A stretch of DNA of 64,000 bases, taken from NCBI GenBank assembly GCA_964016885.1, contig OZ024743.1, forward strand, positions 281,914,001 to 281,978,000. Direction: 5' to 3'. The notes beneath the pieces are model-generated. The model saw only the letters and a program-made list of their open reading frames with translations, made no database searches and was not told the DNA's origin. Each line of letters starts with the position of its first letter. Within the stretch, counting starts at the first letter, position 1. The stretch is from Eledone cirrhosa (Eukaryota). Both the position numbers and the translations under genes were made by a program. Below are positions 19,485-38,734 of the stretch, piece by piece.

Positions 19485-19611
19485 CCCAGACGGACGTCTC
19501 GTTTCATTATAGGACTCCTACAATTTGGGTGAAATTATACCAATTTATGTAGGAGCTTGTATACCATCAACAGATATATATTCAAGTGGGCTCCTATAAT
19601 TCATCAGTGGG
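19485..19611 (-). ncRNA. Type I hammerhead ribozyme motif with extended stem II
   Basis: CCCA-CTGATGA-ATTATAGGA...TCCTATAAT-GAAACG-AGACGTC-CGTC-TGGG. Confidence 0.62.
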
Positions 19612-20077
19612 TGCCCCAATAATACTAATATTGATAATCTAACCAACATCAGCTTTTAGCGATAATCACTTTCTGTGCCTGAGGTATGTCAGGTAGCCAG
19701 TCCAGCAGTTCTGAAAGAAGTGCTCGAACTGATTCAAAAACTGAGGAAGTAAATTACCGCCAAAAAAACAATACATGTGCATGACAATGAATTCTGAAAG
19801 GAATTCAGGCCACGTGCTAGAACTCAATTGGAATTTGAAAAAATATCCATGTGTGTACATCGTTTGATGACACACACAGATATTTTCTCGGGCAAAATAA
19901 CAGAATGAGATATAAGGAACAATCAATATTCATATATAAAAAAAATAAACAAAGAAATGCTAACCTTACATCGGGAATTTTTTCGAATCTGTTGCTCCAA
20001 GAGTAAGTAAATAAATATATATAAATATATATATATATATGTATATATATATAAATATATATATGTATATATATATA

Positions 20078-20731
20078 TCATAAACGAACTAAGGAAAAAA
20101 TTAGAAATAAGAGGGATCAGATGTTGTTTACTAGAGAGAAGGCTACGTTGGTATGGTCACGTGATGCGCATGAAGGATGATAACTGTATAACAAAGTGCA
20201 GGGCAATAAAGATAGACGGTAGCCACGGAATAGGCAGACCCAGAAAAACCTGGGACGAGCTGATAAACTCCGACCTCACACACTTACACCTCACCAAGAC
20301 AATGTCACTGGACCGAGACCTTTGGCGGTACTCAGTAATAGAGAAGATCCGCCTTGCCAGTAGGCATCTCTAACAAAATACACCCCGTCCCACCACCACC
20401 ACCACCACCCCATCCACACCACCCCGTTCTATGTAAAGTTATGTTGGTGCCGCGCCATCCAGGCCGAAACAAATGAGATCGTGTAGGTGTCACGACAAAA
20501 AAACACACAGTCCACGCTGTAATGTGGCCGTGTAGGCAACACGGTAAAAACCTCCCAGACCCACACTGTAAATGTGGTTGGTGTTAGGAAGGGCATCCAA
20601 CTGTAGAAAACCTGCCAGACAGTCCTATGCGAGCAAGAAAATCACTCTTGCCTCAAGTGGGACTACCCCTGTCCAAACCCATGCAAGCGTGGAACACGGA
20701 CGTTAAACGTTGATGATGATGATGATGATGA
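20078..20731 (+). mobile_element. RTE LINE 3' fragment
   Basis: near-identical to the 1113-1945 family; (GAT)n tail. Confidence 0.88.
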
Positions 20732-21091
20732 TATATATATATATATATGTATATATATATAAATATATATAAATATATATATATATATATATATATATAT
20801 ATATGTATATATATATATATATATATATGTATATATATATAAATATATATAAATATATATATATATGTATATATATATATATATATGTATATATATATAT
20901 ATATATATATATATATATATATATATATATATATATATATATATATGTATATATATATATATATATATGTATATATATATATATATATATGTATATATAT
21001 ATATATATATATATATATATATATATATATATATATATATATATATGTATATATATATATATGTATATATATATATGTATATATATATATA
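20731..21091. repeat. ~360-bp (TA)n microsatellite between two tail-to-tail RTE insertions
   Basis: direct reading. Confidence 0.95.
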
Positions 21092-22586
21092 TCATCATCA
21101 TCATCATTTTATGTCCGCTCTTCCCTGCTTGCAAGGGTGGGACGGGTCTTATTCAGCACAGCATCTCTCCACTCGTCACCTCCACCGTGAGCTTCAATGA
21201 TCTGAGGTCTGTTCTCACCACCTCCGCCCATGTTTTTCGTGGTCTACCTCTACCACGTCTTCCTTCAACTGGCATTTCCTGGCACTTCTTCACCCATCGG
21301 TCGTCCTCCATGCGCATCACATGTCCATACCACCTCAGTCTCCTCTCCCGTACACTACATTCTATCCCTCTCAGACACAGTTTCTCTCTCAACACATTTA
21401 TGCTGGGTCGTTCACGCACATTTACACTGCACATCCAACGGAGCATGCTTGCCTCATTTCTCTCCAGCCGTCGCATATCCTCTGCAGTTGCTGCCCAAGA
21501 CTCACTACCATGCAGCATCGCGCTCCTCACACAGGCATCATACAACCGGCCTTTCGTACGCAGGGAGAAACCCTTCTTCGTCAACAGAGGAAGCAGCTCC
21601 CTAAACTTCTTCCAACCCGTCCTTATTCTAGATACTATGGCCTCGGAACACCCTCCTCCCATGCTAAACTGATCTCCTAGGTACCGGAAGCTATCCACCA
21701 CTTCTATAGCGCCCTCTCGCATTTGAAAAATGTGTCTATCAGTGCGACTTCTACTGTCTAATTTCCCTGTACATCTACTGCATACATATTTCTCCCTACC
21801 TGTTAGTTTGCCTGCTATCCCGCTACATCTCTTGTGTACCCAGGACCTGCATTGTGTGCATTTTATAGAATTTATGCCAGTTCCTTTTCTGCATATCGAA
21901 CATGGCCATTTCCCTGACGGAATCAGGGTTTTGTCCTCTTTTCTACTCATCAACACTTTTGTCTTAGCTAGATTTACTCTCAGTCCTCTTGCTTCCAACT
22001 GCTGTTTCCATAGCCGGAATTTATTCTCTAGCTCCTCTACTGATTCTGCTATAAGAGCCAGATCGTCAGCATAGAGAAGTTCCCATGGACAGCCAGTCTT
22101 AAACTCCTCTGTTATGGCTTGGAGGACTATAATGAACAAGAGCGGGCTGAGGACCGAACCCTGATGTACTCCTACTTGTATCTGGAATTCCTCACTAAAC
22201 TCCATTCCTACCCTGACTTTACTGAGAGTACCTCTGTACAAAGTTTGCACTGTCCTCACAAGCCATTCCCCAACACCTAGCTTCCTTAGGGACCACCAGA
22301 TGACAGATCGGGGTACCTTATCAAAGGCCTTCTCTAGGTCAACAAAGGCTAAGTATAGTGGCTTATTCTTCTCTAAGAACCTCTCTTGCATTTGTCTCAC
22401 CAAGAAGAGGGCATCTGTTGTACTCTTCCCAGGCACAAAACCAAACTGCATCTCATCTAGTTTGACCCTTTCTCTAATTAGTTGTGCTAAAATCCTTTCT
22501 GCCACTTTCATAACCTGATCTATCAGTTTTATACCCCTATAATTGCTCCTCTCCAAAGCATCCCCTTTACCTTTGTAGCAATTTAT
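21091..22586 (-). mobile_element. RTE LINE, 5'-truncated, open RT plus Cys-rich finger
   Basis: ORF 21153-22610: NYRGIKL, QFGFVPG, FVDLEKAFD, GVHQGSVLSP, LLYADD, CSICRK...WVHKRC. Confidence 0.92.
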
Positions 22587-22863
22587 GTGATGTGTTGTTT
22601 CCTTGAGCAAGACACTTTATTTCACATTGCTCCAGTTTACTCAGCTGTAGAAATGAGATGATAGGGACTGCGGTCCCTATCATTCCACTGCAAAGTGGTC
22701 GTGGAGGTGCCACGGCAAAAAAGCATCCAGCACTCACTGTAAATGAGGTTGGTGTTAGGAAGGGCATCCAGCTGTAGAAATCAAGCCAGAATCAGTTCCC
22801 GTCCCACCCTTGCAAGCAGGGAAAAGTGGACGTAAAATGAAATGATGATGATGATGATGATGA
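22586..22863 (+). mobile_element. CORE-type SINE, 5'-truncated, RTE tail
   Basis: same sequence as 15041-15370 in the opposite orientation. Confidence 0.75.
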
Positions 22864-36305: not shown

Positions 36306-36532
36306 AAAATATATATATATATATATACATATATACATATATACACATATATATATATATATACATACATAAACATACACACATACACATATATATAACA
36401 TATATATATATACATATACATATATATATATATATACATATATATATATACATATATATATATCATCATCATCATCGTTTAACGTCCATCTTCCACGCTT
36501 GCATGGGTTTGGAATATATATATATATATGGA

Positions 36533-37400
36533 ATATCATCATCATCATCATCAACGTTTAACGTCCGTGTTCCACGCTTGCATGGGTTTGGACGGGGGTT
36601 TTCCCACTTGAGGCAAGAGTGATTGTCTTGCTCGCATAGGACTGTCTGGCGGGTTTTCTACAGCTGGATGCCCTTCCTAACACCAACCACATTTACAGTG
36701 TGGGTCTGGGAGGTTTTTACCGTGTTGCCTACACGGCCACATTACAGCGTGGACTGTGTGTTTTTTTGTCGTGACACCTACACGATCTCATTTGTTTCGG
36801 CCTGGATGGTGTGGCACCAACATAACTTTACATAGAAGGGGGTGGTGTGGATGGGGTGGGGGTGGTGGGACGGGGGTGTATTTTGTTAGAGATGCCTACT
36901 GACTGTAGTAGGTTTTACTATGTATTTAGGTAAGGCGGGTCTTCTCTATTACTGAGTACCGCCAAAGGTCTCGGCCCAGTGACATTGTCTTGGAGAGGTG
37001 TAAGTGTGTGAGGTCGGAGTTTATCAGCTCGTCCCAGGTTTTTCTAGGTCTGCCTATTCCGTGGCTACCGTCTATCTTTATTGCCCTGCACTTTGTTATA
37101 CAGCTATCGACTTTCATGCGCATCACGTGTCCATACCAACGCAGCCTTCTCTCGAGTAAACAACATCTGATCCCTCTTATTTCTAATTTTTTCCTTAGTT
37201 CGTTTATGCTTTGCCGTTCACGTATATTACTATTACACATCCAGCGGAGCATGCAAGCTTCGTTCCTCTCTAGTCTGCGTATATCCTCTGCACACAATGC
37301 CCAGGTCTCACTGCCATGCAACATTGCTGTTCGTATGCAGGCATCATACAACCTGCCTTTCATTTTTAGGGAGAACCCTTTAGCGGTTAATAGTGGTATA
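36533..37400 (-). mobile_element. RTE 3' fragment
   Basis: ORF 36926-37363 near-identical to 1132-1569. Confidence 0.9.
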
Positions 37401-38640
37401 ATTAAAATAAGACTTGTCCTAAATAGAACTACTGTGACAGTAATATCTGTGTATGCACCCCAATCCGGACTGCCTGCCGCTATAAAAGACAGATTCTATG
37501 AGACATAGATGCTCACTATCTCCCAAATAACCGACAGTGACTACATAATTATTGCTGGCGACCTAAATGGTCATGTTGGACAACATTGTGACGGCTATGA
37601 CGGAATCCATGGAGGCTATGGGTTTGGTACTAGAAATGAGGAAGGCTCCAGAATCCTGGAATTCTGTGACGCAAATAACCTAACTATCTGTAACACTAAC
37701 TTCAAAAAACGAGACAATCACTTGATCACCTATAGATCAGGGGAACACGCCAGTCAGATAGATTATATCCTTACCAGAAGACGTGATAGAGTGTCTGTTG
37801 TAAACACTAAATCCCTCCCCCATGAAGAATGCACCTCGACAACAGAGGAGGACTATCCTCAGGAGAAAAATATGGAAGCTAAAGGACCCCCACAGCCAGT
37901 AATAAATTTAAAAGCATATTACTTGATGCTTTCGACAGTAAGGAAGAGCAATTAGAGTCATACAATATAGAGGAACAGTGGGAATTCCTGAAAGCTAACC
38001 TGCTGAAGGCGGCAGATGAAGTCTGTGGCTGGAGCAGGCCTATAGGCAGGAGGAGAGTAACGTGTTGGTGGAACAGTAAGGTGGAGGAGTCAATTAAGGC
38101 CAAAAAGCAGGCTTGGAAAGTATGGCGGGATGGGGGAAGTAGTGAAGACTATCAAGTGGCCAGGAGGGAAGCTAGGAGACAAGTGTACTTCGCAAGAAGG
38201 GAAGCAGAGGAAAGAAAGTTCGAGCATGTTCTACAATGCGAGGACCAAAAATGTGAGGTGTTCAGGATTGCTAGGCAATGTGTCAAGGAAAACCGTGATA
38301 TTGTCGAGGAGAAGTGTGTCCTTAATGATGATGGTGTACTTGACATCACTGACGCTGATAAGGAGTTAGCTTGGAAGTGTCACTACGAAAGGCTACTAGA
38401 TGAGGAGAATAAATGGGAGAAAGACAGTCTCCCCCACATCAATCCAATAGAGGGACCAGCAGTGCTAGTTGAAGGTAGTATAATAAGTAAGGCAATCAAA
38501 GATATGAAGACGGGTAAGGTGGCTGGGCCTTTAGAAATAGTTGCTGAAATGCTGAAAGCATCTGGAATGGTGGGACACACTATGGTCACCCGGATAGTAA
38601 ACCAAGTCATACATAATGGGGCCGTTCCGAAAGACTGGCG
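37401..38640 (+). mobile_element. RTE APE-linker fragment, inverted relative to the adjacent 3' piece
   Basis: ISVYAPQ, AGDLNGHVG, NTNFKK, SQIDYIL, WWNSKV, AEMLKA...PKDW. Confidence 0.85.
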
Positions 38641-38672
38641 TAGTTATGTCAAAATTTATAAAACACACTTCG

Positions 38673-38734
38673 TATTTTATCTGATGAAAGCGTACCAAAG
38701 TTTTTGGTACCCTTGAAATATATATAATATAATA
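38673..38734 (+). ncRNA. Minimal type I hammerhead ribozyme motif
   Basis: TATTTTAT-CTGATGA-AAGCGTACCAAA GT TTTTGGTACCCTT-GAAA-TATATA-TA-ATATAATA. Confidence 0.62.

Follow-up and report, generated by a model that had tools for sequence, protein, structure and literature searches.

A 64,000-nt stretch of the Eledone cirrhosa genome (assembly GCA_964016885.1, contig OZ024743.1, positions 281,914,001 to 281,978,000; hereafter the window) was analyzed with respect to a group of type I hammerhead ribozyme motifs that lie mostly within a 29-kb intron of an alpha-2-macroglobulin (A2M) homologue. The motifs are very probably hammerheads of the pseudo-long terminal repeats (pLTRs) of microsatellite-targeting Penelope-like elements (PLEs), left by ordinary truncated insertions and likely inert in the host pre-mRNA, since the active fold is predicted only with a second copy of the same family. 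Four families, denoted A to D, account for the core-intact motifs.

All eight motifs listed in an earlier sequence-only reading of this DNA were recovered at the same coordinates and on the same strands. Five carry the intact core CUGANGA/GAAA/UH in type I order, as had been claimed; the pairable stem I attributed to these five held in part, with unbroken stems in only three. A strict type I descriptor applied to the whole window returned three matches with unbroken stems (cores at 32311+, 34532- and 19607-). Stem I is interrupted in the copy at 23208(-) by an A-C mismatch at the second pair and in the copy at 38673(+) by a U-U mismatch at the fourth pair, each with an intact core. The copies at 23741(-) and 24433(+) each combine G8>A with a stem I mismatch, and the copy at 5875(+) has two core changes, G5>A and G12>A. 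Seven of the motifs lie inside the intron; the 5875 copy is antisense to the host gene and lies outside it, approximately 1.2 kb beyond the final coding exon. The families differ in their stems and keep a palindromic stem III, as previously described; the palindromes found are UAUAUA, UAUGUA, UGCGCA, CAAUUG, CGAUCG and GACGUC. An inverted pair in the same intron (33120-33440) was absent from the earlier list; its U3-A8 cores at 33361(+) and 33185(-) are accompanied by a stem II of 4-5 bp, a two-base palindromic stem III and a stem I that pairs only with a 3-nt offset.

Chance matches in AT-rich, microsatellite-rich DNA were considered as a source of the motifs. A stem III of UAUAUA is similar to the (TA)n of the surrounding DNA, some pattern matches are due to chance (e.g. 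locus L120), and an Rfam scan yielded 86 matches at E<=5, none of them to hammerhead families; Rfam thus neither supports nor detects these variants. Against chance, the observed descriptor count was reached in none of 200 local dinucleotide shuffles at any of three settings, the shuffled windows containing on average 0.155 matches and at most 2 at the loosest setting compared with 3 observed. Exact-pattern searches of the 3.0-Gb genome, in which counts are pattern matches and not verified folds, yielded 80,403 matches for the type with a UAURUA stem III (A, D and relatives) and 155 for its reversed control. Together with covariation at positions outside the descriptor, these results leave chance a negligible probability, and the motifs are genuine type I hammerhead folds.

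The expected stem covariation among copies was found, with compensatory changes in stems I and II across families. In 24 representatives of families A, C and D, double changes occur at 13 of 19 pairs and 96% of cells are paired, compared with 34-55% in slid alignments; the rows are related to one another, so that shuffle counts are not probabilities, and had been pre-selected for the three innermost listed pairs (pairs 1-3) in every stem. Double changes are also present at four unselected outer pairs of stem II (columns 22, 23, 25 and 26). At the fourth stem II position, likewise unselected, 89 of 91 distinct matches have a pyrimidine mismatch, either C-C or C-U. All three stems were present in 91 of 160 distinct core-only matches among fetched loci, a sample biased towards these repeats.

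In other copies, the hammerheads of families A, C and D continue upstream into open reading frames (ORFs) for a reverse transcriptase (RT) and GIY-YIG endonuclease, bearing out the proposed tie to PLEs. Judged from sequence, the motifs of A (32306/23208), C (34470) and D (38673) represent the pLTRs of 5'-truncated, (TA)n-targeting Hydra-clade PLEs, present in the window as follows.

30215..32520 (+): family A 5'-truncated Hydra-clade element, with collinear matches of 74-81% to loci L162, L164 and L165
32306..32360 (+): family A hammerhead with unbroken stems and UAUAUA stem III, predicted cut after AUA 32355, antisense to host
23157..23391 (-): family A short 3' fragment with the core-intact hammerhead 23208-23262, predicted cut 23213
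23591..24107 (-): family A 3' fragment, left inverted arm, carrying hammerhead 23741-23795 with the core change G8>A
24122..24594 (+): family A 3' fragment, right inverted arm, with the core-mutated hammerhead 24433-24487
5876..5989 (+): decayed A-related copy with two core changes, 73% to the 23208 copy, outside the intron
34440..35748 (-): family C 5'-truncated Hydra-clade element with GIY-YIG end (35360-35748), 3' untranslated region (UTR) and pLTR, flanked by (TA)n on both sides
34470..34540 (-): family C hammerhead with 8-bp stem I and UGCGCA stem III, predicted cut after AUA 34478, sense to host
38645..38734 (+): truncated 3' end of family D that carries hammerhead 38673-38734 and directly abuts (TA)n, predicted cut 38726, antisense to host

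The two Penelope remnants of the window are the bodies of the A copy and the C copy. A single truncated A element includes both the remnant at 30215-31292 and the 32306 motif; it comprises a broken RT-thumb/linker/GIY-YIG remnant, a microsatellite-interrupted 3' UTR, the pLTR with its hammerhead, a long tail and a (TA)n end; L162, L164 and L165 hold the ORF together with the same hammerhead. The C insertion is 98% identical over 1,325 nt to the near-intact element at L082, which has an ORF start of 598 residues and a GIY-YIG end. Its hammerhead has perfect stems and the copy is identical over 221 nt to at least seven others and hence young. For D, the end of a Hydra-type ORF (the 3' part only) lies upstream of the same hammerhead at L155 and L158. 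The full tandem at L164 consists of an inverted truncated copy, a hammerhead, a tail, an ATG approximately 250 nt further on, the ORF, a 3' UTR and a second hammerhead, with a repeat unit of 4,097 nt from hammerhead to hammerhead.

These arrangements bear on the possibility that all four families are short non-autonomous ribozyme elements, in keeping with the several non-autonomous families proposed earlier. Most copies are short, and no PLE ORF was found on the same strand within 1.5 kb at any of 30 general-pattern loci. In longer stretches, however, Hydra-type ORFs are joined to the A, C and D hammerheads, and the short copies represent variable 5' truncations. For A and C, the elements at L164, L165 and L082 rule the proposal out, and D has been seen with the 3' part of its ORF; the description fits only the non-coding family B, and as an account of all four families it is very improbable.

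Assignment to the Hydra clade follows from the proteins and from the insertion structure. A single ORF with RT followed by a C-terminal GIY-YIG domain is present in L082/L062 (C) and in L164/L165 (A, frameshifted copies). Pfam matches to GIY-YIG were weak (E=7e-4 and 0.027, the latter at 35360-35748 and below the Pfam cut-off), and a Pfam scan of the element ORFs yielded no RVT_1 matches. Family A has RWK with DKT in L164 and EKT in L165, and family C has an RWI variant with DKT. Motif alignment of the A, C and D proteins revealed a CxCX5C linker and CxxC and CxH around E and N, with no CCHH; the proteins are 42-55% identical to one another, and the A and C proteins had no blastp match to a second, CCHH-type PLE of the same genome. 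The copies display (TA)n insertion, a pLTR and an inverted 5' copy, as Hydra elements do, and their 3' ends lie in (TA)n, either 40-60 or 130-165 nt past the cut site. An inverted second hammerhead was observed at 10 of 30 loci in family A, 6 of 25 in C, 11 of 25 in D and none of 25 in B; among the C and D loci, some represent the same insertion counted from either family.

Members of the Hydra clade (Craig et al. 2021, PMC8557442) share with A, C and D the C-terminal GIY-YIG, CxCX5C, CxxC/CxH and the lack of CCHH, as well as the (TA)n target, inverted 5' copies and a type I hammerhead close to the 3' terminus; with A and C they also share the RWK-type and DKT motifs. Hydra-clade PLEs with a hammerhead have already been published in the supplement to that study, among them Hydra-1_Obim of Octopus bimaculoides, from whose listed motif the hammerhead sequences here differ when compared by eye. 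Compared with the published clade, the elements described here have a longer stem II, the conserved pyrimidine mismatch, longer units, a very high copy number and a tail of approximately 95 nt rather than 30-40 nt. The families are new; the phenomenon of Hydra-clade PLEs with pLTR hammerheads is mostly known. With the minimal PLE hammerheads described by Cervera and de la Pena 2014 (PMC4209133) and by Lunse et al. 2017 (via PMC6765202) they share the type I topology, a palindromic stem III, many solo copies, opposite-strand pairs 100-700 bp apart and the U3-A8 variant. They differ in that C and D have A10.1-U11.1 instead of the usual G-C and an 8-bp A-U stem I, and in numbering 110,575 motifs compared with the 2,000-9,000 per genome given in those sources.

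The host gene is an A2M homologue on the minus strand, 78-81% identical to three octopod proteins in the one exon tested. Its exons were mapped by tblastn using three cephalopod A2M proteins as queries.

13772..42976 (-): host intron, 29,205 nt, GT donor at 42976 and AG acceptor at 13772
42977..43079 (-): host exon upstream of the intron, from tblastn and splice sites
13691..13771 (-): host exon downstream of the intron, from tblastn, splice sites and the edge of an X4 contig

The intron junction is in frame and agrees with octopus A2M homologues. A 5,772-nt contig from run X4 (kind unrecorded) covers three host exons without differences and without the intervening introns, departs from the genome exactly at 13771, at the intron acceptor, and extends 4,814 nt further upstream. 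It is consistent with a spliced full-length mRNA, with the junction to exon 42977 suggested by its length. As an observation on the host protein, a C-terminal extension is present beyond the receptor-binding domain (window 7113-7260), and one of the homologues (P0003-P0005) is labelled NTR-domain-containing.

The sense strand of the intron carries three core-intact motifs, 19485, 23208 and 34470, as had been stated, i.e. one each of families B, A (with the stem I mismatch) and C. The other sense-strand A copy (23741) is core-mutated and predicted to lie inside a 421-bp hairpin; it belongs to an inverted A pair with 421-nt arms, 97% complementary, that is predicted to be fully paired in the pre-mRNA. 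A cis dimer of 23208 and 23741 was considered and rejected, as one core is mutated, the stem I halves are mismatched and 23741 is predicted to be locked in the hairpin. ViennaRNA assigned the monomer fold a probability of 2e-5 to 2e-9, while the same-family dimer fold is predicted to gain 12.6-19.9 kcal/mol over two monomer folds; between families, stem I is predicted to form 0-1 pairs. The sequence-only reading had suggested that the motifs could cut the intron co-transcriptionally. This was not supported: monomer folds are predicted to be rare, no intact same-family sense partner is available, and a contig of apparently spliced mRNA exists. The predicted need for a same-family dimer, the three incompatible sense families and this contig make intron cutting unlikely, and the copies are probably harmless to the A2M intron.

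The contrary view, that the sense intronic copies cut the A2M pre-mRNA as monomers, as trans dimers with other transcripts or, where elements are active, with the help of their protein, and thereby lower splicing, is distinctly unlikely. In its favor are the perfect stems and young age of the C copy at 34470(-) and the predicted self-duplex energies of C (-10.5 kcal/mol) and B (-14.7 kcal/mol). Furthermore, an anole hammerhead cleaves once its protein is added (PMC11167929), and fast intronic ribozymes lower splicing (Fong 2009 as cited in PMC10919898), while splicing is unaffected by slow ones according to the same citation. For minimal PLE hammerheads, PMC4209133 reports inactive monomers and weak dimers. 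The anole Poseidon hammerhead requires its protein, and no ends are left in RNA-seq data (PMC11167929). Among Xenopus dimers, one of nine is reported to have cleaved. Like these copies, the CPEB3 ribozyme (PMC10919898) lies within a long intron in sense orientation; it is a conserved single locus with a half-life of 2-3 min, whereas the copies here are young dispersed repeats predicted to be partner-dependent. By observed copy number and predicted monomer activity, the copies thus do not resemble a single conserved, monomer-active locus.

The distribution and structure of the A, C and D copies can be accommodated by a mechanism analogous to that of Poseidon in the anole. The element protein would nick (TA)n and start reverse transcription within its RNA, presumably at one of two start sites downstream of the hammerhead. 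The insertion substrate would be uncut or re-ligated RNA, because sequence from either side of the cut site is retained in the genome; Poseidon likewise inserts from uncut RNA (PMC11167929). In tandem transcripts, two same-family hammerheads may pair via stem III, perhaps helped by protein, and release unit-length RNA. Truncated copies often adjoin an inverted truncated copy. Poseidon of Anolis (Frangieh et al. 2024, PMC11167929) shares with these elements two 3' ends that define a tail, a hammerhead upstream of the reverse-transcription start and an AT-rich target; it belongs to another clade, and its ORF starts within the hammerhead rather than approximately 250 nt after it, as in L164.

It is unlikely that the fold is kept mainly as a platform for RT binding or priming, with cleavage incidental. 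Such a role would fit the retained pyrimidine mismatch at the fourth stem II position, a stem II longer than catalysis requires and 3' ends at fixed distances, and catalytic mutants of the anole element had no effect on in vitro insertion (PMC11167929). However, the catalytic boxes are conserved across families with 42-55% protein identity (though the boxes were in the search patterns), the core of a further family, E, has a compensated U3-A8 change, and stem III has remained palindromic through double changes. These hammerheads bear on the role of such ribozymes in PLEs, and the near-intact young elements provide material for in vitro tests.

Family B differs in lacking a coding region, and is present in the window as a single insertion.

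19304..20015 (-): family B element, approximately one 707-nt non-coding unit, with (TA)n on both sides
19485..19611 (-): family B hammerhead, predicted cut after GUC 19489, sense to host

The insertion aligns over 717 nt (95%) with a doubled unit taken from a tandem copy. Its hammerhead is composed of a 4-bp stem I, a 9-bp stem II with a two-hairpin branch and a 3-bp stem III with a GACGUC palindrome, and the longest ATG-initiated ORF of the 707-nt unit encodes 44 aa. B copies form partial tandems, arranged head to tail, whose 5' ends vary and whose 3' end is fixed approximately 180 nt past the cut site; each unit has one type I hammerhead, with three in a row in L168. Subfamilies have units of 739 and 998 nt (overall range 707-998 nt), and one inverted pair (L197) was found among them compared with none at 25 loci of the main family. 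In 21 chosen representatives, 7 of 29 pairs have double changes and 95% of cells are paired compared with 30-50% when slid. The changes affect each of the three stems as well as both hairpins of the branch; they mostly separate a few subfamilies, and so represent few independent events. RNAalifold finds the branch unprompted, yet pairs the core differently. The B unit folds with z=-8.2 relative to 20 dinucleotide shuffles, and the hammerhead region alone with z=-1.9. In run X4, a 354-nt contig derived from a different B copy spans the predicted cut site; RNA ends are not visible in contigs.

In subfamily B2, stem II starts with a U-U at its base and the cut site is GUU; the U-U base and a U at the cut site also occur in Hydra-clade hammerheads (PMC8557442 File S2). 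As both are common in published Hydra hammerheads, a Hydra origin is suggested for B, which may borrow the protein of a Hydra element. PLE ORF pieces of several families are near 14 of 70 B loci, and the three read by eye are separate insertions. The CCHH-type PLE, frequently a neighbor of B, was rejected as its parent, as (TA)n separates the two, it occurs in either orientation and its 3' UTR had no blastn match to B. The widely spaced same-strand B pairs L224 and L225 are segmental duplications, and L166 comprises two separate insertions.

B is a candidate large animal retrozyme with a predicted branched-stem-II hammerhead. Like the non-LTR retrozymes of Cervera and de la Pena 2020 (PMC7229834) and Li et al. 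2026 (preprint 10.64898/2026.07.22.740005), B is non-coding and low in GC (31-35%), with head-to-tail units, a type I hammerhead in each, strong self-pairing and coexisting PLEs. The B units of 707-998 nt compare with 170-400 nt for retrozymes (PMC7229834) and 51-972 nt in the preprint, whose supplements may list longer ones. B occurs mostly as 1-3 units dispersed in (TA)n, unlike the long arrays of retrozymes. It has a Hydra-type minimal core and branched stem II in place of the canonical loop 1-loop 2 contact of retrozymes. No branched-stem-II type was found in the literature searched, which excluded subscription journals and Repbase/Dfam; Lunse et al. 2017 may include long-stem-II variants. 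The conserved branch on stem II makes family B an additional hammerhead architecture.

The four genome-wide patterns together yielded 110,575 core-intact matches compared with 155 in the reversed controls. In addition to the UAURUA type, the C-type pattern had 22,338 matches, the B superfamily pattern 2,490 (so that copies number at least 2,490) and the pattern of the U3-A8 family E 5,344, with no match in any of their reversed controls. Narrower searches yielded 6,887 matches for a 32-place pattern of family A, 569 for an exact 28-mer of family B and 1,355 for an exact 26-mer of family D. Copies 96-100% alike number from hundreds to tens of thousands.

The three patterns for types present in the window correspond to 35 matches per Mb, 1.03 per 29.2-kb intron length and 2.25 per window. 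Under a uniform model, five in the intron has P(>=5)=0.004, with approximately 418 such bins expected genome-wide; for five in the window, P=0.08. Clustering is expected from the (TA)n target common to all families, and the cluster is ordinary for this genome. The first 11 Mb of G000:C1 has approximately one third of the mean density (100 matches in 11.4 Mb), and density thus varies by region. Schistosoma has a higher hammerhead density than octopus. In the axolotl genome (~28 Gb), 126,247 motifs are reported. No genome-wide hammerhead count for an octopus was found in the literature searched for branched-stem-II types; Lunse et al. 2017 may include cephalopod variants. The O. vulgaris repeat paper contains no instance of the word 'ribozyme'. 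The intron cluster has no importance of its own; the leads worth following are family B and the scale of the phenomenon across the genome. At least 110,000 motifs with intact cores, spread over many diverged families, provide statistical power on whether host transcripts are cut, comparing intron orientation and intact with mutated copies. A bolder proposal, that B represents a new class of large (0.7-1 kb) animal retrozyme with a branched-stem-II hammerhead and a circular RNA mobilized by Hydra elements, and that more than 100,000 hammerheads, switched on by element protein or trans pairing, cut host pre-mRNAs enough to shape insertion orientation and splicing, is rather unlikely.

Several points weigh against the interpretation of the motifs as inert pLTR hammerheads of Hydra-clade insertions. 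The copies exceed 100,000, and the germline could supply partners in trans or the element protein; the C copy at 34470 is young with perfect stems, and B, with its 3-bp stem III, could be active as a monomer. Tertiary contacts are outside the ViennaRNA model, which scores every hammerhead core too low; the low monomer probabilities are accordingly soft, and the dimer fold lies 1.4-9.8 kcal/mol above the best cofold. The X4 contig derives from another sample of the same organism than the DNA-like runs, and some insertions may be absent there. The intron is approximately 5-fold above the genome mean under the uniform model. The Hydra assignment of A, C and D is based on motifs and not on a tree; the A unit (4,097 nt) and the C unit (at least 3.3 kb) exceed the published Hydra size of '<3 kb', which is a tendency and not a strict criterion. 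No ORF-bearing parent of B was found.

Other repeats in the window include a Hydra-type family with relatives elsewhere in the genome.

~52030 (+) and 53750-54075 (-): family E, Hydra-type, also at L244-L255, with U3-A8 core and long stem II

Family E has a 5-bp stem III around a GAGCUC palindrome, and the window copies are truncated and without the first box. At 33706-34408, a 533-nt partial tandem (170-nt direct repeats, 98%) lies between (TA)n runs in pLTR-like geometry; a CUGAUGA box is present, and no fitting hammerhead fold was found when this tandem was read by eye. The CCHH-type PLE (L157:1159-3591(-) and L156), which we take to be Neptune-like, also ends in (TA)n and has a 3' UTR with a CUGAAGAG box. 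Within the intron, a 622-aa Pif1-type helicase ORF at 15897-17765(+) (Pfam PIF1 E=1.5e-64) is likely a Helitron piece. A tRNA-like sequence at 19073-19143 (Rfam 46.5 bits) sits in an inverted-repeat frame (18990-19220) and is probably a SINE. A Mariner-like transposase remnant (HTH_48) is present at 24640-25520(+), with an inverted piece at 23412-23592 interleaved with the family A copies, and a broken LTR-retrotransposon gag-pol remnant lies downstream of the host gene at 2260-5188(-). When located in introns, inverted pLTR pairs, in the window (23686-24542) and genome-wide, would fold into long double-stranded RNA whichever strand is transcribed, and are possible substrates of A-to-I editing, which is extensive in cephalopods.

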